Source: Trichodesmium erythraeum IMS101 (GTDB lineage: Bacteria > Cyanobacteriota > Cyanobacteriia > Cyanobacteriales > Microcoleaceae). From it: a stretch of 32,000 bases of DNA. The position numbers and the translations under genes were made by a program. The notes beneath the pieces were generated by a model. It was not told the DNA's origin, did not search any database, and saw only the letters and a list, made by a program, of their open reading frames with translations. The stretch is from contig NC_008312.1 in NCBI RefSeq assembly GCF_000014265.1, forward strand, positions 4,470,001-4,502,000. Reading direction: 5' to 3'. Of the stretch, positions 21,222-32,000 are shown one piece after another; position 1 is the stretch's first letter; each line of letters starts with the position of its first letter.

Positions 21222-21838
21222 AAGTAATTTTTTCTGGCGTTAGTTTTCGTTAAATTCTATCTTAAGTACTGTATTACCTAGCATGATAATATATCCCTAA
21301 TTTATTAATCAGATACTAAACGATAGTCTATATTTTCTTCTCTAGATAAAAATTCAGCAAATATTCAGTGCAATGCAAGTGGGACCAATAATAAACTTAC
21401 CTCGTAATTGCCATTGACCTAAGCTGGGATCATCAACTTCTAACAATGCACTAAGAGTATGATACCAAATCCGGCTATGAAAAGCTTATTTTTTAAATCC
21501 TTCCAACTCTCTAGTACAAGTGCCTTAACCTTTATAATAAAGCGTAAAGCGGATTTAGTCTGACTCACTCAATTTCTAGTCTTAAATGCAAATAACCCAC
21601 ATAATTCTACTATCGCTTGAAATCTAACCCTGCATTTGTCAGATGACTAAACCTTGATTTCCCACATTTTAATGGTTGTAAATTTATATCTGTTTTATTT
21701 TGCAATGCCTGAGACTGAATAAACTTTTACTGATAGTAAATATAAGGGCTACTACAGAGCAATTAATATTTTCTAGTTCAAATATGCCAGAACTATTTTT
21801 TCTCGAAGATATGTTGAATATAATTTCATAACTATATA

Positions 21839-22880
21839 CAGCACTCTGCATAACTAATTATTACAGTAATAACAGTGAATAAACTAATTTAGGATTTGCT
21901 TAGAGGAAAACAACTTAATGCCTAACTCTAAAAGTTTAGTTACTCCGTTCAAGTTTTTGGGCACAAATGCTGCGGAATTATGCTTTGAGTTCCAACCATT
22001 AATACTCAATAGGTTTAAATTCTGGTGAGCAGGGAGATAGATATATAACCTTAGCTCCCACAGACTCTAATATTTTTTTCAATACCCTTGACTTTATGAA
22101 CCATCAGAATTGTCCATAACGACCACTGCTCCTGGCCATAATTTTGGTGCTAATTCTTTCTGGATAATATTGAAAATCTTCTCCCTTAATTAATTTTCAT
22201 CAGGATTAGATTTAAAACAAAGGTTTTGATAGCGATCGCATGACCACATTTGATAGCCCCAATGAAAGTGACTTGGCTACCTCTATAGTAACGTTTGGAC
22301 CCATAAAATCCTTCTCCAATAGACTCCTGGCCATTGGTCTCATCATGCCCAGTCAAATACCCATTTCATCCAAAAAGGCCAGTTTTTCGGGATGGCAAAT
22401 CTCTAATTACTTTCCAATACTCCAACCTTTTTCTTTGATTTTCCTGTCTTAGAGCCTAAGTGCTTCTTAGGGTTCTTTTCAGGGTCAGTTGTATTGAATC
22501 AAAAAACGGCACATTGTACTTTCACTGACTATGATTCCAGCTTTGTCTTGCAAATATTCACAGCATTCTACTAGTATCAGGTCAGGTCTCAATAAGTCTT
22601 TCTAGAATCTTCTATTTCATTTTTATAATTTAATAATTGCTTGGGCTTACCTCTTATTACTCATCGAGGCAGTAATTGGCCTGTTTATGGTTTTCGTTTT
22701 AATAGCTCTTGTACCCTACTTTTGCACTCCTTGAAATCTTTGAGCAACTTTCCCAATAGATAGTATCTCCAGCTTCGTAAGTGCTGACCATTTTTTGAGG
22801 TAAGTCTAAAGAATAAGGTTTCATTTTTATCAAAACAATTCAGAAAATATCATTACACCTAATAGTTATGCAAAACAGTG
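21839..22880 (-). mobile_element. IS630/Tc1-mariner family insertion sequence, decayed (copy 1)
   Basis: Terminal inverted repeats CAGCACTCTGCATAACTA (left) and TAGTTATGCAAAACAGTG (right), each flanked by TA. Reverse-strand translation from ATG (complement of 22822-22824) reads MKPYSLDLPQKMVSTYEAGD.... Further blocks are WPGAVVVMDN, then HKVKGIEKILESVGAKVIYLSPCSPEFKPIEY in shifted frames with several stops. Confidence 0.75.
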
Positions 22881-23123
22881 TAATCAAATTTTTATTTCTA
22901 ACTTTCCCTGATAACACGTGCAAACCACTGTATTAACATTTACTTATATTCTTGTATCTTAATATTTACTTATATTCTTGAAAATTTATATTTTTGAATA
23001 TCTTGAGTAAATAATTTTATGTAAACTAATGTGATATAAATCACTAATTTGTAGGATAAATATCATCTAAATTCAACTTATTTATCACAATTATTAATTT
23101 TGATATAAGTAATATTAAAAGTA

Positions 23124-23351
23124 ATGGAGTTATTGGAAAAAACTATGATGAATTATCTAAATCAATCTTTTCTACCGGCAATAGGAATCACAGAATTAAT
23201 GTTTCAAGTTTATCGTTCTGGTATCTTGACTAAAGACCAAAGAAAACAACTCAAAGATTTATTTTTATACCACAATCTGACTGAAGAAGATACCACCGCA
23301 ATTAATCGATTAATTCATGCAATTCGCCGTGGATGGTTGAAAATGGTATAA
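23124..23351 (+). CDS. hypothetical protein, 75 aa
   Basis: Intact ORF between the two IS630 relics. The C-terminal pattern ...LTEEDTTAINRLIHAIRRGWLKMV resembles small cyanobacterial proteins I recall, but I cannot name them. Confidence 0.5.
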   Translation: MELLEKTMMNYLNQSFLPAIGITELMFQVYRSGILTKDQRKQLKDLFLYHNLTEEDTTAINRLIHAIRRGWLKMV

Positions 23352-23547
23352 TTCAGAATATCCTTTTTATAATTGTTGAAAGTTTAATTATTTTTGAAAA
23401 ATGCTATACTTAACTATGTTCTAATAATCCATATAATAAGATATTTTTATCTTTAATAATTCTCAAATAAAAGTTATTAGCATCTTATTCATAGTTCCTG
23501 ATGTCTAATCCTTAACCACTAATTATATCTAACAAAGATAAATAACA

Positions 23548-24448
23548 CAGCACTTTGCAAAACTAACTAGTACAGCAATAATAGTAGGTCAAATAATTTT
23601 TGATTTGCTTAGAGAAATATCACTTAATACCCCATTCTAATAGTTTAGTTACTGCTTCTAAGTTTCTAGGCGTAACGCAAAGTAAAGTTTGCTGATAAAT
23701 GCTAGGGTGTTCTTACCATAAACTCTCCATTGGAGAGAGCTCCGATGAGTAGGGAGATAAATACATAATCTTAGTTCCCACAGACTCTAACATTTTTTCA
23801 ATACCCTTGACTTTATGGACTTAAAAGTTTTTCATAACTACCACTGCTCCTGATCATAATTTCAGCACTAACTCTTTCTGGATAAATTGTTAGAAATTTT
23901 TTCTCTTCATTGATTTTCATAAAATTTTGAAAGAATTAGTACTTCTAAAATTGATAGCCCCAATTGACTTTGACTCGACTACCTTAATATTTTTGGTTAT
24001 TAATGTTAGCCTGTTCTCCAATATACTTCTCCAAAAATGCCGATTTTGGAACGGCGTTTCAAAGAGTTAGTAACCTTTTATGAAGATATCTAATAAGCTC
24101 CTGAACATTAGTCTCATCATCCCCAGTCAAACACCCAAGTAATCCAAAAATACCAGGTTTTCGGCATTGCACATCTCTAATAAATCCGAATTATCCTCCC
24201 TTTTTCTTTGATTTTCCTCTCTTAAGGGTTGAGTACTTCTGAAGATTTTTTTCCAGAATTCTATTTGATTCAAAAAAACAGTACATTGTACTCTCACTGA
24301 CCCTAATTCCAATTTTCGAGTACATCTGAATAGATGTCTGTGAGGCTTAATAAGTACTGACAATTTTTTGACTTAGGTCTAAAGATAATGTTTTTTTATC
24401 AAGAAAATTCATATCTTTGATTACCTAAAAGTGTAATGCAAAATGCTT
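23548..24448 (-). mobile_element. IS630 family insertion sequence, heavily decayed with internal deletions (copy 2)
   Basis: Colinear with copy 1 in the same orientation. The left end is CAGCACTTTGCAAAACTAAC and the right end is ...GTAATGCAAAATGCTT followed by TA. The block ttagttcccacagactctaacattttttcaatacccttgactttatgga parallels 22050-22098. About 140 bp shorter than copy 1 and full of stops. Confidence 0.65.
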
Positions 24449-24783
24449 TATTTAGTATAACTAAAATATTTCTTTCAGCATTTTTATAAATATCAACTTA
24501 TATAACAATACAACTATATCACCAAAAACTTTTTATCAAATCTTTAACTCATAAATTTTTATATACTATAGAGTAAATTCTCACCATAAGAAGTATAAAT
24601 ATTAAAGAATATCTAACCTGAACAACCGTAGTTTAAATAAACTTTTGTAGTATATAATTTTGCCAGGCATTACTTTATCTTACTCTTAAGCAAAAAAGAA
24701 GATAAAAATTGTGGTAAAAAAATAGTAGTTTTAGCTAAAATTAACCTACTTTATAAGTATCACTATTATTGTAAAGTTTACAA

Positions 24784-25314
24784 ATGAGCGATATTTATAT
24801 TTCTTGGTCACATTATCATCAAACAATTGAACATCTAGTAGCAAAAATTTATCAATCCCAATGGGAGTTCAATCAAATTGTCTGTTTAGCTAGGGGAGGA
24901 CTACGAGTAGGAGATACTCTTTCTCGTATTTTCAGCAAACCTTTAGCAATTCTAGCTACTTCTTCTTATGGCGACATTAAGGGTCAAAAGCAAGGTAATA
25001 TTAAAATAGCGAAAAGTTTGACTATGACTACAGATAGTTTAGGTAGTCATGTTTTGTTGGTTGATGACCTAGTAGACTCAGGAATTACTATTAAAGAATC
25101 CATTAATTGGCTTCAGAATAATTATGGTCAAGAAATTAAAGAAGTAAAAACGGCTGTTTTGTGGTATAAGTCTTGCTCAATATTTGAACCTGATTACTAT
25201 GTTGATTATTTGCTTGATAATCCCTGGATTCATCAACCCTTTGAAATATATGAACAAATAAATCCTTCTGATTTAACAAATGTCTACATAGATAGTCAAA
25301 TTAACTTGGATTAA
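24784..25314 (+). CDS. phosphoribosyltransferase (purine / xanthine-guanine PRT-like)
   Basis: PRPP-binding loop VLLVDDLVDSGITI, upstream CLARGGLRVGD, and a size of 176 aa. Confidence 0.8.
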   Translation: MSDIYISWSHYHQTIEHLVAKIYQSQWEFNQIVCLARGGLRVGDTLSRIFSKPLAILATSSYGDIKGQKQGNIKIAKSLTMTTDSLGSHVLLVDDLVDSGITIKESINWLQNNYGQEIKEVKTAVLWYKSCSIFEPDYYVDYLLDNPWIHQPFEIYEQINPSDLTNVYIDSQINLD

Positions 25315-25523
25315 ATACTTAATTTACTAGGGATACAGATTTAGGAAAAAATTTTTTGTGCTAAGTTAAAAAAATGCTGATATTAACTAAACTCATATAT
25401 CATCATATTCAAGCTAAAGCTAAATTAGTCAAAAATAGCAAATGCCTAATTTTTTGGCTTCAAGTAGTAACTTGAGCTTTAGTTTGTGTGATATACTTAT
25501 CCATTAATAATAGTCTTTATATA

Positions 25524-25662
25524 TGTATAGCAATCCTAAATTATTTGTAAAATCACTGAACTTCTTGACAAGAGTTTCAACTTCTGTTTATCACGCCTTC
25601 TGATTCCTGTCTCCTCCCTTCTAGTCGCTTATTTTTTTCACAAATTATATAGAATTGCTACA
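25524..25662. repeat. MITE-like element: ~28-nt imperfect terminal inverted repeats around an 82-nt core
   Basis: TGTATAGCAATCCTAAATTATTTGTAAAA (25524-25552) vs the reverse complement of 25635-25662, TGTAGCAATTCTATATAATTTGTGAAAA. About 22-23 of 27 aligned positions match with one 2-nt gap. Confidence 0.35.
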
Positions 25663-25868
25663 TTTGTCTCCATGTTTCCTTTAGTGTTAGATTGCTGAAT
25701 ATTAAAGGTAGAAATAGATTTTTTAATAGCACTATCAAAAACACTATTTAGGAGCAGCCTGGTCATTAACTCCGGGGTTTTTAAAGTATCGAAACTTAAT
25801 TAGACTTGAATTCTTTTTCAATTGAACCATTAACCTATAATCTTCTTCAATTAAATTATTTATTTATT

Positions 25869-26225
25869 ATGTCTACTTCTAAACTAACTTTGAATCTAGT
25901 AGAGGGATCTATATCTTTTGATTTTACCCCTGAGGCGGCAAGAAATTTACAAAGTGCAATAGCTGAATTAATAAAGCAATTAAAATCTGTTGCTGCCAAA
26001 ACGGCTACAGGTAGTTCTGGTAAACCAACTCCACAAAAACCTACGGAATATCGGTATACAGGAGATGTCTTTTTAGAAATCTTTTGTAACCCTAATATTT
26101 GGCCTAGTCCTTTTGCTGCTAAATTATTAATTACTTTGCGAGATGAGCGAATTCGGATAACCACTGAAGCTGAACTTACTAGAGTTTATGATGATATTAA
26201 TCAATATTTAGACCAAAGAGGCTGA
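25869..26225 (+). CDS. hypothetical protein, 118 aa (ATG start preferred over the track's TTG at 25806)
   Basis: MSTSKLTLNLVEGSISFDFTPEAARNLQSAIAELIKQLKS.... A stop-containing paralogous fragment at 28115-28240 begins its homology at exactly this ATG, which supports 25869 as the start. Confidence 0.55.
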   Translation: MSTSKLTLNLVEGSISFDFTPEAARNLQSAIAELIKQLKSVAAKTATGSSGKPTPQKPTEYRYTGDVFLEIFCNPNIWPSPFAAKLLITLRDERIRITTEAELTRVYDDINQYLDQRG

Positions 26226-26356
26226 AAGTGTTCAAACTAATTTTGAATGGCAATTACATGAAGCATAATTCATCGGTTAAATTACAAAATTATTTACCTA
26301 ATTTTTGTGTGAAACTAGTTCTGCAAAGATAGTTTGAATTTTATGATATGTTAAAC

Positions 26357-27690
26357 GTTCGCCATATAGGTTACCCTATCCGACTCGCCTTCAAATTCAA
26401 AACCGTGCCTGACTTTCACCTCACACTGCTCCTCTCCTAGACATTCCGGCGTTGGTGAATTAAGGTATGATTTGAGTTCATAGCGATCGCGCTCTTAGGC
26501 AGAAAAATTATAGAATGTCCAGAATGTCAATCAACTTACATCAATAAAAATGGCCAAAAGAAAGGAAAGCAAAACTACATCTGTGTTTATTGTGGTCCTC
26601 AATTTATTGATTCCTATGAAACTTATACAGGTTATAGTGATCAACTCACAGATGAATGCTTAAAAATATATGTTAATGCTATGGGCTTAAGAGGAATATC
26701 AAGAGTCAAAAAGCTACACCATACTACAATTATCAACTCAATTAAACAAGTAGGACAACTATTACCACGTTCTTACTCTCCTCAAAAAACTCCTCAAGTA
26801 GAAGAGCTAGAAGAATTACAGAGATAATTAGGCTCAAAAAAAACCAAATTTGGGTATGAACCGCAGTAAATCATTTTAAAAAAGGAGTTTTAGAATGGGT
26901 TATTAGAAATCTTAGCGGAAAAACATTTTATCCTTTATGGGAACAAGTTAAAAAATAGGAATGTCCTCCTTTAAATTACAGATGGATGGAAAGTATATAC
27001 CAAGGCCTATTAATGATGGGGATAAAATTATCAGCAAAACCTATATGACCAGAGTAGAAGAAGAAAATACTAGACTTCGGCACTATCTTGCCATATGACA
27101 TCGAAGGACTCTTTGCTACTCAAAATATAACGCGAAGTTAAAGCATTCAATTCACTTACTGATCCAGTAAATATCAATTTTGGGATGTTCCAGTTCCTTA
27201 TAGATATTCATAGCGATCGCTATGAACTCCAATCATAACTTAATTCACCAACGCCGACATTCCTTGTCATGGGTATATCTCTGCCTCAATATCAACATAT
27301 CATCAACAGTTGTTTATTCTTGTATGTGTTTTCAACACCTTCAGACTTAGATTTTATATGCTCTATTTCCATTAAGTCTGTAGGCTTAAAGGTTGCCTGA
27401 CAAAATGTGCATTTATTTTTTTGTCGTCTTAACAGCGTCGTGACTTCTTTCCTTACCCCTGGATATTTACTTATTCTGTTGCTCCAATAACTCCAGTCAC
27501 CTTCATAATGGTCATTTATTACCTTTAACTTTAATGTGCCTGATCAAATAGGAACATCTGAGTCTTGGTTTAGTATATATTCGCCATCATTGAGCAACCA
27601 GTTTTTGGTCTTTTTAACATTGGGGAAATACTTTTTCTGTACCCAGAAGGCTGCCTTATTTCGATGTCTTCTACTCTAGGGGAATTGACC
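26357..27690 (-). mobile_element. group II intron relic (C-terminal maturase/HNH part of the IEP plus a domain V-like hairpin), split by the IS1 element
   Basis: Reverse strand of 27264-27690 translates to ..RRHRNKAAFWVQKKYFPNVKKTKNWLLNDGEYILNQDSDVPI*SGTLKLKVINDHYEGDWSYWSNRISKYPGVRKEVTTLLRRQKNKCTFCQATFKPTDLMEIEHIKSKSEGVENTYKNKQLLMIC*. This is the typical IEP tail: SPYDGDW.YW, LLK.Q.GKC..C, E..HI.P.S.GG...NLQLL. The reverse strand of 26399-26431 reads GAGCAGTGTGAGGTGAAAGTCAGGCACGGTTTT, close to the bacterial domain V sequence as I recall it (GAGCCGTGTGAGGTGAAAGTCTCACGCACGGTTC). No RT domain remains upstream. Confidence 0.55.
26448..27255 (+). mobile_element. IS1-family insertion sequence, 808 bp, decayed, with an intact 8-bp target-site duplication
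   Basis: 43-nt terminal inverted repeats GGCGTTGGTGAATTAAGGTATGATTTGAGTTCATAGCGATCGC (26448-26490) vs the reverse complement of 27213-27255, with 2 mismatches. Direct repeat GACATTCC sits at 26440-26447 and 27256-27263. The InsA-like zinc-finger reading is IECPECQSTYINKNGQKKGKQNYICVYCGPQFIDSY...GLRGISRV, with no start codon (ATA where ATG is expected). The InsB-like part (..TDGWKVY.., ..NTRLRHYLA.., ..KDSLLLK..) is broken by multiple stops. Confidence 0.8.
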
Positions 27691-27739
27691 TATTTTTTCT
27701 ATTTATATATATTATCATTTTTGGGAAAAGTTCACTAAG

Positions 27740-27857
27740 ACTCAGAACGAAAAAAAAATGAATATGTATTGATATATGCGAATTTCAAAAATGTTGTTTT
27801 GCAAGTTGAGAATAAGTTAATAAATTTGGTTTGATAAAAGGTTATTATTAAAATATC
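27740..27857 (+). pseudogene. 3'-terminal fragment of a paralogue of the 28801-30057 acyltransferase gene
   Basis: gaatatgtattgatatatgcgaatttcaaaaatgttgttttgcaagttgagaataagttaataaatttggt... aligns with gaatatttattaatatatataaatttaaaaaatgttgttttacaagttaaaaataagctaataagtttgggt... at 29940-30057, an offset of exactly 2200 bp. The fragment has a stop codon and no upstream coding part. Confidence 0.55.
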
Positions 27858-28114
27858 GTGTCAATTACATAATAATTACAAATTGAGTTTACTTTCAAAA
27901 TAAATTAGCTTTTAAGTTTCTAGCTATTCAGATTAAAAAGATCTAGATTCAGCTATAAAATATACATTCTAGCTAAAATATTTTCCAACAACTTTTCACT
28001 TGCTTCTATCCACGTTATATTAACATAAAATTTTTTTTATCTATAATTTAAGATCGAAAATTATCTTTAATATTGAGTTAACTTAGAATACAATTTGTTT
28101 ATATTTTATTTCTG

Positions 28115-28240
28115 ATGTATATTTCTAAACTAACCTTGAATTTAGCAGTATAATCTATATCTTTTGATATTATTCCTGAAGCTAGAATAAATTTGCAAGG
28201 TTTTATCGCTCAATTAATACAGGGATTAAAATATTCGGTA
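28115..28240 (+). pseudogene. 5' fragment of a paralogue of the 25869-26225 gene, with an in-frame stop
   Basis: atg tat att tct aaa cta acc ttg aat tta gca gta TAA tct ata tct ttt gat att att cct gaa gct aga ata aat ttg caa... aligns codon for codon with atg tct act tct aaa cta act ttg aat cta gta gag gga tct ata tct ttt gat ttt acc cct gag gcg gca aga aat tta caa.... Similarity is lost after about 125 nt. Confidence 0.6.
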
Positions 28241-28800
28241 AGTTTATTTATTCTGAACAAAAAAATAATTTTTTAAAAGTAAAGTCTTAAAAATTTTCTA
28301 GTAGATAAAGATGAAGTAAATAATTATATACTCTTCCTTATAAACCAAAGTCTAACGGGAAAGTATCAGTACCAAATCATAAGTTTTTCTATTCTTCAAC
28401 TCTATGCTTCTCTGTTTCCTGAATCCTAATTCCTCAAGAACTAAATCATAAAGAAAATATATTATAAGAGAGTATTTTTCAACACAATATTAAGATTATA
28501 ATCAGTGGGATAAATTTACTGAAGAATTAATATATTGTAGATATTGTTAGGTAGATAAATACAGTTAATATAAGCAACCTAAAAGCATCTTCTGAACCCA
28601 AATCTGGTTATCAAAAGTAACTTTTTCCAATTTCTCTCTAACCTTTGCTGCATAAGTATCCTCTGCATTCTGTTTTACCTTTATGGGGTAAGCTTTCTGT
28701 CTAAACAGGATTTACCATGACTTTCCTAAAATCATTATTTTTCCCTTATTTAGGTAGAACGAGTCTATAAAAGATTTTTCAATATCAATAAATCTAACAT

Positions 28801-30057
28801 GTGAAACCAATGGAATTAATTACAAATAGTAATGTGTATCAAGAGTATCAACTTTCAAAATTTGATCTTGAGATGGGAGTTTGGCCTTATTATGGTGTGA
28901 TAAATTGGTACAAACATCAAATAGATTCTCATAGATTGAAAGTAGCAATTCAACAAATAGTAGATAGTGTACCAATTTTGGGAGGAAGATTGGTAAAGAA
29001 ATTTTTTTCCCCATTAAAAGTCGTATGTAACCCACAAAAATCTGGTGTTGGTTTTATTCATATTGATCTAGATGAACAGGAAATAAATATTGATAATTTA
29101 TTAGATGCAAGAACTTATATAAAAAATCAATTCAATATTCCCAAAAAATCTGCAGATGCTATTAATAAAGATATTCCATTAATATATGTGATTTTAAATC
29201 ATAATCAAAATTATTATGGCGTAACTCTACTTGTTAATCATTTCATAGCAGATGGTGGAACATATTTTAAATTATTAGAGTATCTTTCTCAAGCATACGA
29301 AGACCTAGAATATGTCTCTAAATCTGAACCATTATTTACAATAAATTTTAATAAAATGGATGATTTTATATCTGCAAGCTTTAAAAAATTATCATGGAAA
29401 GATAAACTTTTCAGTTCAACGTCTTTTATTGTTTTTATACTGAACAGTTTTTTTCAAAATAAGAATAATTGGAGTTATCTTGAATGTATCTTAACCAAAG
29501 AAAAGTTAGATTTAATCAAGGGTAAAAATAAAAATATTTCTAATGAAAAAAGTGCTTATAGCACAAACGATGCTTTATTTGAATTTTTATCAGTTGTTCC
29601 TATTAAACGATTTATTTTTCCTTGTAACTTAAGATATAGAAAGGTTGGCATACCAGAAAATTATTTAGGAAATGCTGAAGCTTTCGTCTTGGATTTAACT
29701 AAACCAGAAAACAATTATATGTTAAAACATACTAATGTCAGAAAAGCAGTCAATCAACTTCCAAAAATATACAGTTTTATACCTACTTTTAATGGCAAAT
29801 ATATGGCTCATAATTCATGGGTAAAATTGCAAAATAATCTACCTGGTTTTGGTGGTAAATTAATTCTACAAAAAATATTTGAATTTGATGATATACCAAA
29901 AGATATATTATCATTATTTTGTAAATCATCCCTGATATACAGATTGACAGAAAATGAATATTTATTAATATATATAAATTTAAAAAATGTTGTTTTACAA
30001 GTTAAAAATAAGCTAATAAGTTTGGGTGTAGAAAGGGTTATTATTAAACAATCTTAA
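28801..30057 (+). CDS. BAHD-type (HXXXD-motif, CAT/condensation-like fold) acyltransferase, orphan
   Basis: The motif series is in canonical order: LSKFDL (aa 18-23), PILGGRL (58-64), HFIADG (147-152, nt 29239-29256), STNDALFEFL (254-263), PENYLGNA (285-292), and NSW..LPGFGGK (338-353, the DFGWG position about 68 aa from the C-terminus). The start is GTG 28801 or ATG 28810. Very AT-rich. Confidence 0.7.
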   Translation: MKPMELITNSNVYQEYQLSKFDLEMGVWPYYGVINWYKHQIDSHRLKVAIQQIVDSVPILGGRLVKKFFSPLKVVCNPQKSGVGFIHIDLDEQEINIDNLLDARTYIKNQFNIPKKSADAINKDIPLIYVILNHNQNYYGVTLLVNHFIADGGTYFKLLEYLSQAYEDLEYVSKSEPLFTINFNKMDDFISASFKKLSWKDKLFSSTSFIVFILNSFFQNKNNWSYLECILTKEKLDLIKGKNKNISNEKSAYSTNDALFEFLSVVPIKRFIFPCNLRYRKVGIPENYLGNAEAFVLDLTKPENNYMLKHTNVRKAVNQLPKIYSFIPTFNGKYMAHNSWVKLQNNLPGFGGKLILQKIFEFDDIPKDILSLFCKSSLIYRLTENEYLLIYINLKNVVLQVKNKLISLGVERVIIKQS

Positions 30058-30271
30058 TCAAGTATATAATAATTACACATTGGCTATACCTGATAAATAA
30101 ATTCAATTAGCTTTTAATCTGCTAGTTATTAAGATTTAAAAAATATAGATTGAGCTCTTAAAATATCAAAAAATTAGCATAACTTCTTTGCACTTGCTTC
30201 TATCCATCTGGGTTATTTTAACAGTAAAGTCTATTTATAATATAGAATGATAGAGAAATTACTATTTAATA

Positions 30272-30676
30272 TTGAGTAAACTTACATTTATGAACCCTGA
30301 TGATCTAACCCAAATAATGCAAAAAGCATTCCGTACTACCCTAGGTGCAACCTCCTTTTTCATGGAAACTTTGCAAGACTCTAGTAAGCGGGATGAAAAT
30401 TTGAATAAATTAAATTCTGATTTTAATCAACTAACTGAGGAGTGGGCTGAAAGAGGTGAGATGACTGAGCAGGAAGCTCGAAGCTTTGTTGATATAATTT
30501 TGAATCAACAAAATACTCAAGCCAATACTGATAGCACAACTGTTTCTTCCAGCCCTAATTCTGCTTCGGGTTTGGCACAATCAGATATACAAAGAGATTT
30601 ATTAGAGCTAACTCAAGAAATAGCTAACCTACGGAATGATTTACAACAATCTCAAGAGTTAGACTCTCAGAACTAA
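30272..30676 (+). CDS. hypothetical coiled-coil protein, 134 aa (the start may be ATG 30290 rather than TTG 30272)
   Basis: ..AFRTTLGATSFFMETLQD..KRDENL.KL...F.QLTEEWAERGEMTEQEARSFVDIIL.. followed by a low-complexity S/T/Q-rich tail and a terminal heptad-like segment. Composition is like the core genes. Confidence 0.6.
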   Translation: MSKLTFMNPDDLTQIMQKAFRTTLGATSFFMETLQDSSKRDENLNKLNSDFNQLTEEWAERGEMTEQEARSFVDIILNQQNTQANTDSTTVSSSPNSASGLAQSDIQRDLLELTQEIANLRNDLQQSQELDSQN

Positions 30677-30831
30677 AGTTTTTCTTAAATTTTTGGAAAT
30701 AAAAAAATATCTGGAACATTATAGGATTCTAATCTATATTTATCTTATTTTCTTATTAAGTTCTGAAAAAGTAGGATAAATCATAGTATCTAACCTAGAT
30801 AAAATATAGTTTAACTAGGTTAGATTTTTAT

Positions 30832-31062
30832 TTAGTCGTTGTCCCATTTTTCTCTGCCTATTAGGTCACCAATTCGGTCCCTAAGTAGAAAGTCACATTC
30901 TTCTAATTCACATTCTACACAAGCCCATTCTCTGGCCGGAATATATCGACACAGAGTATAAATAGGCTGCTGACGACTGAGAACTCCTTTATGTACAAGT
31001 TCTAGTGCTTCGTCCCTGATAATGTCTAAAGAATATTGAATTGTGGTGTAAGTCATGGTCAC
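30832..31062 (-). CDS. small conserved cyanobacterial protein, 76 aa (possibly DUF4327-like, from memory)
   Basis: ..YSLDIIRDEALELVHKGVLSRQQPIYTLCRYIPAREWACVECELEECDFLLRDRIGDLIGREKW.. is non-repetitive with a Cys-containing conserved-looking core. The family name is recalled, not verified. Confidence 0.65.
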   Translation of the reverse strand: MTMTYTTIQYSLDIIRDEALELVHKGVLSRQQPIYTLCRYIPAREWACVECELEECDFLLRDRIGDLIGREKWDND

Positions 31063-31156
31063 CCTCTTGGCCTAGCTTAAGTAATTTTCTGCGCTACGGT
31101 ACTATTTATAATATAATGCAAAATTTGTAATTATGAACATTAAATTTGTCAGTATA

Positions 31157-31275
31157 TATAGTTACAATTTTTTATCTTGTTTTGATAAGAATTTTAAAAG
31201 TAAGAATGCCAACACATTACATTACATTTAGTGTTGTCTAAATTACAGTTATGTGCTAATAAAATTGTAACTATA
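31157..31275. repeat. perfect 15-bp inverted repeat separated by 89 nt
   Basis: TATAGTTACAATTTT (31157-31171) and AAAATTGTAACTATA (31261-31275), located 95-213 bp upstream of the 30832-31062 gene. Confidence 0.6.
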
Positions 31276-32000
31276 AGGTAGTAGCTAATAATCTAAACTT
31301 TCCCAGCCTTCTTACCTGAAATCATCATCTGGCCCATATAAGTTTAATTTTGTTTAATCAAAAATTAGGTGATATTTTTTGATATTTTAGACAGATACTT
31401 GTGAATCTTTAAATATAAAGATCCAGATAGCTTTGGGGCTTTTAGTATTTGTCCATAACAGAAGATATAAGATCTCTCTGATAATATTTCTGGGGAAAAC
31501 CTTTTCAATGTTTACTGACTACTGTATATGATTATACCTTATAGTTTGCCATTTCTTAATAATCTCTTCATGAAATCCTCTGCTACTTGTGTTAGACTAA
31601 TTTTTTGTCCAAAACAATGACCATCAATATATCAATGAGAAGTAAAGGTTCTGATAACCTGAGAAATAAGTGTTAAGAAGTATATCCTGTACAAATGCTA
31701 AATTACGTAAATGATGATTATCTGTACTTGGAGTCAGATAACTTCCTTCTACTTGAATAGAGCCTGGCAAAATTTGAGCAACACTTTCTTTTCTTGTGCC
31801 GAATTCGCTAAATTTTTAACTAAATTGTATGTAGGAGCTAAGAAATAATCTGGTATGTTTTCATTTCCAGGTTGCTAGGTAGGAAAAACCTTGATTTTAG
31901 CTTACCAAATTCTCTGCAAAGATTTATCAATTCGTAATTCAGAAATACGGCCTGGAGCCACCGCGTCACAAACAGTATTAATTGTCTGCTCAGGATCTAC

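Follow-up and report, generated by a model that had tools for sequence, protein, structure and literature searches.

The gene Tery_2889 of the cyanobacterium Trichodesmium erythraeum IMS101, located near the end of a 32,000-nt stretch of contig NC_008312.1 (positions 4,470,001 to 4,502,000, hereafter the window), encodes a genuine, intact bacterial relative, very divergent in sequence, of the BAHD acyltransferases of plants and fungi. BAHD enzymes are regarded as belonging to these two groups of organisms; we have little doubt that Tery_2889 belongs to the BAHD/PF02458 family and shares its fold. We also consider it fairly probable that the whole of our preferred explanation is right, namely that the product is an HXXXD acyltransferase of the BAHD branch that acts on a secondary metabolite and has the evolutionary history reconstructed below. 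Taken by itself, the secondary-metabolite role of this particular copy is a closer call, and we would place it just short of evenly balanced.

An earlier reading of this DNA without database searches (the sequence-only reading) had placed a 418-aa open reading frame (ORF) at 28801-30057 on the forward strand, and the frame is indeed open over this interval when read from a GTG codon. Close orthologues universally start at an ATG three codons further in (MELITN...), and the coding sequence (CDS) was therefore taken to begin there; the start codon is likely to be the ATG at 28810, which would give a protein of 415 aa. All residue numbers below refer to this shorter protein, in which His144 corresponds to His147 of the earlier 418-aa numbering. 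The product sequence is exactly that of Tery_2889 (ABG52059.1, WP_011612418.1, UniProt Q110L5), which is named 'hypothetical protein' at NCBI and, automatically, 'Condensation domain-containing protein' in UniRef. One Okeania orthologue is already auto-annotated as 'acyltransferase'.

We used profile searches to examine the family assignment. Tery_2889 itself does not reach the gathering threshold of the Pfam Transferase family PF02458 (22.7 bits), and relatives or profiles are needed to make the link. The threshold is passed by the orthologues or homologues P0016 (23.7 bits), P0033 (28.0 bits) and P0035 (27.4 bits). With a core-family profile of 21 members, a search of 1.84 billion cluster representatives recovered 116 relatives at E ≤ 1e-3, nine of them at E < 1e-30, and a second, word-indexed homologue search with an extended alignment of 30 sequences brought in just two more, P0034 and P0098. 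This is a tiny family. In the extended alignment, twelve sequences out of 30 match PF02458 (best E 1.3e-46) and four match Pfam Condensation (PF00668), the best being P0035 at E 5e-5. When the core profile was aligned by hhalign with four bona fide bacterial PF02458 proteins, they matched at 99.1% (E 1.8e-18) over 305 columns. A search of the extended profile against all PDB sequences gave 27 matches at E < 0.01, every one of them a BAHD enzyme or TRI101 and none a condensation domain; AmAT7-3 (2.6e-17), spermidine hydroxycinnamoyl transferase (3.8e-17, near end to end) and vinorine synthase (7.5e-17) matched best, and CER2 is also among the PDB matches. Together, the hhalign and PDB searches indicate profile-level homology to PF02458 members across both lobes. 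The WS/DGAT model (PF03007) had no match to Tery_2889 at E ≤ 10. The sequence-only reading had called the product a BAHD-like HXXXD acyltransferase and had staked this on a match to an HXXXD-family model; such matches do appear once relatives are used.

The motif series on which that reading was built is likewise real, with every motif at the place given for it: LSKFD starts at residue 15, PILGGRL at 55, NHFIADGG at 143, YSTNDAL at 250, NLRYRKVGIPENYLGNAE at 273 and NSWVKLQNNLPGFGGK at 335. The HXXXD motif is present, and the stretch opposite HFIADG of Tery_2889 reads HVVADG, HAIVDG or HKIADV in solved BAHDs. His144 directly follows strand 136-142 and precedes helix 149-164 in the AlphaFold2 model described below, and from the alignment and this secondary-structure context it would be expected to lie at the junction of the two lobes. 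Further along, NLRYRKVGIPENYLGNA aligns with DARTRLIPPLEDDYFGNA of 8h8i, DTRSRMEPPLPRGYFGNA of 6lpv and NLRSRMNPPLPHYAMGN of 2bgh, the NSW of Tery_2889 falls on the BAHD (T/V)SW, and Phe347 falls on the Phe of DFGWG. The DFGWG motif itself is absent: as had been noticed before, its Asp and Trp are replaced, the stretch reading G346-F347-G-G-K, and only Pro345 and Phe347 of this region are conserved within the family. Three residues (His144, Arg275 and Asn288) are invariant down to homologues of about 20% identity, and seven more (Asp148, Gly149, Ser251, Asn253, Asp254, Gly287 and Arg311) are nearly so.

Structure prediction led to the same family. A first AlphaFold run with 21 close sequences, which already gave BAHD matches, reached a predicted local distance difference test score (pLDDT) of 68.5 and left residues 271-324 unmodelled; it was replaced by an AlphaFold2 run with the 30-sequence alignment (pLDDT 90.7, predicted template-modelling score 0.91). 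When this model was compared with the PDB by Foldseek, the top 48 matches were all BAHD enzymes or TRI101 (E 2.8e-18 to about 6e-15, template-modelling (TM) scores 0.55-0.64). The first domain of a nonribosomal peptide synthetase (NRPS) appeared at rank 49, with epimerisation and condensation domains at E of about 1e-14. EPS1 (6wcs, 6wao) is the top match, although the E values hardly separate the BAHD structures from one another (3e-18 to 1e-15). The sequence-only reading had also proposed a two-lobed fold as its structural test, and the predicted model has one, chloramphenicol-acetyltransferase-like and with BAHDs as the nearest structures.

Family members that can be named come only from Trichodesmium, Okeania, Dapis and Moorena, with a few more distant ones from metagenomes. 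More than 20 genomes carry orthologues of Tery_2889 with 75-86% identity, and the ratio of nonsynonymous to synonymous substitution rates (dN/dS) against them ranges from 0.24 to 0.50; the acyltransferase is under purifying selection, though not of a strict kind. The protein is intact and 99-100% conserved in several strains and metagenome-assembled genomes of T. erythraeum, and the gene is also intact in Okeania SIO1F9 and Dapis M229.

The composition of the gene is unusual. Its G+C content is 25.6% (0.154 at third codon positions (GC3) and 0.306 at the first two) versus 33.6% for the window and 32-41% for the neighbouring genes measured, among which its GC3 is the lowest, and Leu, Lys, Ile and Asn make up 40% of the residues of the protein. 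The spot counts given earlier, 14 G+C in the 60 nt from 29401 and 26 in the 60 nt from 10501, are both exact; a horizontal origin or rapid drift had been drawn from them. The low G+C content is genuine, whereas a recent horizontally acquired island is ruled out by synteny across three genera. Nor is the AT-richness peculiar to the T. erythraeum locus; it is a trait of the whole family, which is a low-GC outlier in every host examined (GC 0.26-0.30, GC3 0.15-0.23), even in a Moorena cluster of 41% GC, where GC3 in the flanking genes is 0.33-0.37. The low-GC state has also persisted although the clades have diverged widely at synonymous sites (dS about 0.77).

All Trichodesmium, Okeania and Dapis loci that reach far enough have the gene order phosphoribosyltransferase, hyp113, acyltransferase, hyp134 and, on the reverse strand, DUF4327. 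About 130 bp separate hyp113 from the hyp134 homologue in Microcoleus FACHB-672 and Planktothrix tepida; no acyltransferase lies between these direct neighbours, and DUF4327, GH3 and RbfA follow them. This adjacency shows that the acyltransferase entered the core pair hyp113/hyp134 in an ancestor shared by Trichodesmium, Okeania and Dapis. The hyp113 gene, which has no Pfam domain, is pan-cyanobacterial (about 2000 clusters, with 70-75% identity in very distant genera) and occurs without the acyltransferase, which rules it out as a dedicated partner of the enzyme. The genes hyp113, hyp134 and DUF4327 form a conserved triad upstream of GH3 and RbfA (loci L030 and L031).

After its insertion the locus was rearranged. 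The decayed second acyltransferase copy reported in the sequence-only reading is confirmed as two pseudogene fragments, A and B (Table 1), which lie about 1.4 kb apart with an IS1-like element included in that distance; the nucleotides of fragment A (26231-26349) are 76% identical to 29776-29894. Repeat analysis and tblastn show that the fragments belong to a tandem duplication of about 2.2 kb that comprised hyp113, the acyltransferase and about 150 bp downstream. The claim that the family was once duplicated here is thus right as to the duplication but not as to its unit, which was hyp113 together with the acyltransferase and not the acyltransferase alone. Copy 1 retains an intact hyp113 and copy 2 an intact acyltransferase, showing that the two copies decayed reciprocally, helped by the IS1-like insertion, until one intact copy of each gene was left.

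Table 1. Features of the Tery_2889 locus and of related loci; coordinates are those of the window unless a locus of a relative (L) is named.
Feature	Coordinates	Strand	Basis or remarks
Acyltransferase CDS (Tery_2889)	28810..30057	+	415 aa plus stop; orthologue starts and exact database match
HXXXDG catalytic motif, codons N143-H144-F-I-A-D148-G149	29236..29256	+	alignment, conservation, predicted secondary structure
Equivalent of BAHD (D/N)xRxR..PPLPxGYFGNA, codons for NLRYRKVGIPENYLGNA	29626..29676	+	profile alignment
Equivalent of BAHD (T/V)SW...DFGWGK, codons for NSWVKLQNNLPGFGGK	29812..29859	+	profile alignment
hyp113, 118-aa core gene, upstream border of insertion site	25869..26225	+	synteny and homologue search
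hyp134, conserved cyanobacterial gene, downstream border of insertion site	30272..30676	+	synteny
Pseudogene fragment A (aa 319-362)	26225-26350	+	57% identity, in-frame stop; abuts hyp113 stop codon
Defective IS1-like insertion, 810 bp	26447-27256		44-nt terminal inverted repeats, 95% complementary; splits pseudogene copy
Pseudogene fragment B (aa 381-415)	27754-27858	+	69% aa identity, two stops, 83% nt identity
Duplicated downstream spacer	27861-28012	+	matches 30058-30206; repeat spacing 2194-2202 nt
Second hyp113 5' remnant, first 39 codons	28105-28232 (codons at 28115-28231)	+	64% aa and 77% nt identity; duplication junction
Partial acyltransferase copies in relatives	L008 8779-9207 and 11485-11710; L009 60-281; L025 3533-3652
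Cluster-embedded paralogues	L003 10001-11260; L019 724-1983; L020 9992-11251

The IS1 label of the 810-bp element comes from a weak Pfam InsA match (17 bits) and the inverted repeats, and from these only. The inner end of each inverted repeat is a HIP1-like palindrome, GCGATCGC, and the element contains an InsA-like zinc-ribbon frame that has no start and an InsB part full of stops. Dapis M229, Okeania SIO2F4 and Trichodesmium MAG_R02 likewise have partial N- or C-terminal acyltransferase copies beside the intact gene, and because these partial copies are independent in the three genomes, rearrangement is recurrent at this locus.

Other genes that we scanned near the acyltransferase encode FeoAB, GAPDH, DUF1823, NdhM, phosphoribosyltransferase and DUF4327. 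A stretch of about 3.4 kb (21300-24700) has no ORF of at least 80 aa, and contains short fragments at 22485-22833 and 24127-24363, both on the reverse strand, that by eye resemble the N-termini of IS630-type transposases. In the matching interval Okeania SIO1F9 carries a 625-aa gene, and between DUF1823 and NdhM its locus contains a further gene, for a PP2C phosphatase; these differences suggest gene loss and decay in T. erythraeum. No RNA family was found by Rfam in 25000-32000, and a promoter and terminator scan gave 32 promoter-like sites versus 21.8 expected, which is uninformative in such AT-rich DNA.

What the enzyme might do is suggested by its relatives. One group of paralogues, about 60% identical, occurs in Moorena SS36440bin_2 (L020, contig WTKN01000342), in Trichodesmium MAG_R04 and on metagenome contigs; here the gene forms an operon with a P450 gene and starts 8 nt past it. 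Upstream of this pair lies an NRPS that ends in cyclisation-A-oxidase-PCP-TE, with an FkbH-like stretch recognised by eye, and downstream are two further NRPS genes and a polyketide synthase (PKS) with the domains KS-AT-KR-ACP-TE. The cluster holds two thioesterase-terminated assembly lines. A more distant homologue, of 35% identity, has a gene for a Rieske oxygenase on one side and one for a FAAL-ACP-KS megasynthase on the other. Two independent contexts, one with a P450 and one with a Rieske oxygenase, thus pair the enzyme with both an oxygenase and an assembly line, and hydroxylation followed by O-acylation is classic tailoring logic. Because the closest paralogues adjoin oxygenases inside NRPS/PKS clusters, acylation of a secondary metabolite is suggested, and Tery_2889 is probably a natural-product tailoring enzyme. 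The gene had been described as an orphan without adjacent PKS, NRPS or carrier-protein genes, which is accurate locally but does not extend to the family, given the paralogues inside such clusters.

If Tery_2889 works as solved BAHDs do, its product would be an HXXXD acyltransferase with two lobes, soluble and about 48 kDa in size, in a small divergent bacterial branch of BAHD/PF02458. His144 would serve as the general base that deprotonates a hydroxyl or amine of the acceptor, and the acceptor would then attack the thioester of an acyl donor, most likely acyl-CoA, with Asp148 and Arg275 expected to have structural roles. As acceptor, a secondary metabolite of polyketide, peptide or lipid type would be most likely, with its pathway encoded at another place in the genome. 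While the analysis shows the fold, the family, the motifs, their conservation, the synteny, the duplication and the surroundings of the paralogues, we infer the chemistry, the donor, the acceptor and the present activity.

Several observations weigh against this reading in whole or in part. With respect to the family, Tery_2889 alone scores only 14.7 bits against PF02458 (E 0.012), in the N-lobe only, and a global TM score of about 0.6 with a root-mean-square deviation of about 7 Å marks a strong divergence from solved BAHDs. With respect to function, no PKS, NRPS or carrier-protein gene is present among the window ORFs of at least 80 aa, which makes the proposed acceptor pathway hypothetical for this copy; no linked carrier-protein or adenylation module was found among the window ORFs scanned, and the paralogues in NRPS/PKS clusters are separate genes. 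Those paralogues also differ from Tery_2889, being only about 60% identical and reading HLIVGG, so that the Asp of HXXXD is Gly in all three (L003, L019 and L020). A copy in Moorena SIO4G3 (L002 9068-11257) does adjoin NRPS/PKS genes, but we gave this adjacency less weight as perhaps accidental: the copy groups inside a Trichodesmium MAG_R02/R03 clade (neighbour-joining, bootstrap 86-96) and has DUF4096 and DDE transposase fragments immediately upstream, which suggests transfer between genera mediated by an insertion sequence. A search of the literature available to us returned nothing on Tery_2889 or on cyanobacterial BAHD-like enzymes, and we found no biochemical, transcript or proteome evidence for Tery_2889. 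Finally, orthologues at four loci (L015, L021, L022 and L024) are disrupted by stops, frameshifts or insertions. That of Okeania SIO3I5 has an in-frame stop, that of Okeania KiyG1 has stops and a frameshift, that of Okeania SIO2B3 has a stop at codon 14 and a 228-nt insertion at about codon 106, and that of Trichodesmium MAG_R04 has a frameshift. Given these disruptions and the fairly high dN/dS, the acyltransferase is dispensable in some lineages, and it could be inactive in T. erythraeum. The insertion in Okeania sp. SIO2B3 (L022 10318-10546) is GC-rich, has hairpin-like ends and resembles a miniature mobile element.

The disruptions, which arose independently, raise the possibility that Tery_2889 is an intact-looking relic: having lost its partner in the pathway after insertion and duplication, it would now be drifting with selection relaxed, and both its AT-richness and the neighbouring pseudogene would be symptoms of that state. 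The dN/dS values of up to 0.5, the lowest GC3 among the neighbours measured, the partial copies that litter the locus in several genomes and the ORF-poor stretch at 21300-24700 in T. erythraeum would all fit such a history. Nevertheless, the gene has kept 415 codons open at 26% GC, a composition in which stops arise easily, and its near-complete conservation among T. erythraeum strains and metagenome-assembled genomes, its invariant catalytic and structural residues and dN/dS values clearly below 1 in all comparisons speak against such a relic. Although it is the strongest of the rival explanations, we therefore regard a drifting relic as unlikely.

Slightly less likely again is that the protein is a free-standing, NRPS condensation-like enzyme that takes its acyl group from a carrier protein and works in trans with an assembly line. 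Its UniRef name implies as much, its paralogues sit between NRPS genes, and epimerisation and condensation domains do appear in the Foldseek comparison. Tery_2889 also matches Pfam Condensation, although below threshold (12.1 bits, E 0.076, cut-off 30.6) and in the same N-lobe region as PF02458, and NCBIfam PapA5, at 16 bits against cut-offs of 396 and 873; the Condensation match of P0035 is stronger. However, PF02458 leads Condensation among the family members both in number (12 vs 4) and in score, the PDB profile matches at E < 0.01 are confined to BAHD enzymes and TRI101, and the protein matches the BAHD-specific NLRxR..GNA and NSW..F, which lie outside HXXXD. Moreover, the first His of the condensation-domain HHXXXDG is Asn in Tery_2889 (NHFIADG), and there is no carrier protein near it in the window. 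As to the type of donor, the sequence cannot decide between CoA and a carrier protein.

About as improbable, in our judgement, is a more elaborate scenario in which a tailoring acyltransferase of an NRPS/PKS cluster was domesticated into the core locus of Trichodesmium, a diazotroph of global importance, and its relatives. Acting there in trans, it would acylate either a lipid or pigment of the cell or what an unlinked pathway produces, while the HXXXG paralogues would join two released chains by an ester bond. We know of no bacterial BAHD-fold enzyme in which ester-joining of two separately released chains has been established as a role.

Much harder to sustain is a BAHD fold with a role other than acyl transfer, whether as a lyase like Arabidopsis EPS1 or as a non-catalytic partner like CER2. 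EPS1 tops the Foldseek list, CER2 is among the matches and DFGWG is degenerate, but the ranking is nearly flat across BAHDs, and the general-base His and its HXXXDG context are conserved throughout the family. At 25.6% GC, with four residues forming 40% of the protein and its own Pfam match below threshold, one might have suspected a spurious ORF of low complexity and high AT content in which the motif series arose by chance. This is refuted by conserved orthologues, purifying selection, a confidently predicted fold and homologous profiles that match with E values of about 1e-17 to 1e-18.

A divergent BAHD-type acyltransferase therefore remains our preferred reading of Tery_2889, which moves from a hypothetical protein to a likely metabolite-acylating enzyme whose presence varies among relatives. 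The clade to which it belongs is a defined bacterial BAHD branch, with nine cluster representatives at E < 1e-30 and with named members that are all marine filamentous cyanobacteria. To our knowledge, bacterial BAHD members are essentially uncharacterised, and this branch offers an entry point to missing acylation steps in cyanobacterial depsipeptide and polyketide products and possibly an enzyme for engineering. The locus neatly illustrates how a gene can enter a conserved core pair and be duplicated in tandem, with the copies then decaying reciprocally. These findings do not overturn existing knowledge, nor do they describe a new kind of system.

Among known systems, NRPS condensation and epimerisation domains and PapA5 share with Tery_2889 the fold of the CoA-dependent acyltransferase superfamily and the HXXXDG loop, at the level of weak matches. 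It differs from condensation domains in having no significant profile match to them, no match to their other motifs, no megasynthase and no adjacent carrier protein. Closer are the bacterial PF02458 proteins, whose homology is evident from the hhalign comparison and which keep HXXXDG and R..GN as Tery_2889 does, although they are only about 20% identical to it, keep a DF(G/E)-like loop (YDVDFEG, YDIDFGSG) and occur in other genomic contexts. On its contig P0098, for instance, has AraC and GGDEF/EAL as neighbours; P0051 forms a fusion with a response-regulator receiver. The sequence-only reading had considered a stand-alone copy in a cyanobacterium unusual; uncommon it is, but not unprecedented, since such bacterial relatives exist.

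The fungal trichothecene 3-O-acetyltransferase TRI101 (2zba, 3b30, 2rkv) resembles the predicted model at a Foldseek E of about 1e-16 and is matched by the extended profile. It is a BAHD-fold O-acetyltransferase that tailors a secondary metabolite and is encoded with or near a biosynthetic cluster, but it is eukaryotic and its profile match is weaker than those of plant BAHDs (E 1.1e-3). The plant BAHDs of PF02458 (vinorine synthase, 2bgh; HCT, 5kjv/4g0b; AmAT7-3, 8h8i; spermidine hydroxycinnamoyl transferase, 6lpv) are nearest overall. They have about 420-450 residues versus 415 in Tery_2889, and both show the two-lobed fold (predicted here), HXXXDG after a beta-strand, (D/N)xRxR...GNA and (T/N)SW ten residues before the conserved Phe of DFGWG. 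The two match over the full length of the profile (E of about 1e-17) and by Foldseek (about 1e-18), yet with only 11-15% identity and a TM score of about 0.6. Tery_2889 is unlike them in its bacterial host, in the change of DFGWG to GFGGK and in its own sub-threshold Pfam score. It thus lacks two marks of a BAHD enzyme, that score and DFGWG, and bears all the others that we tested.

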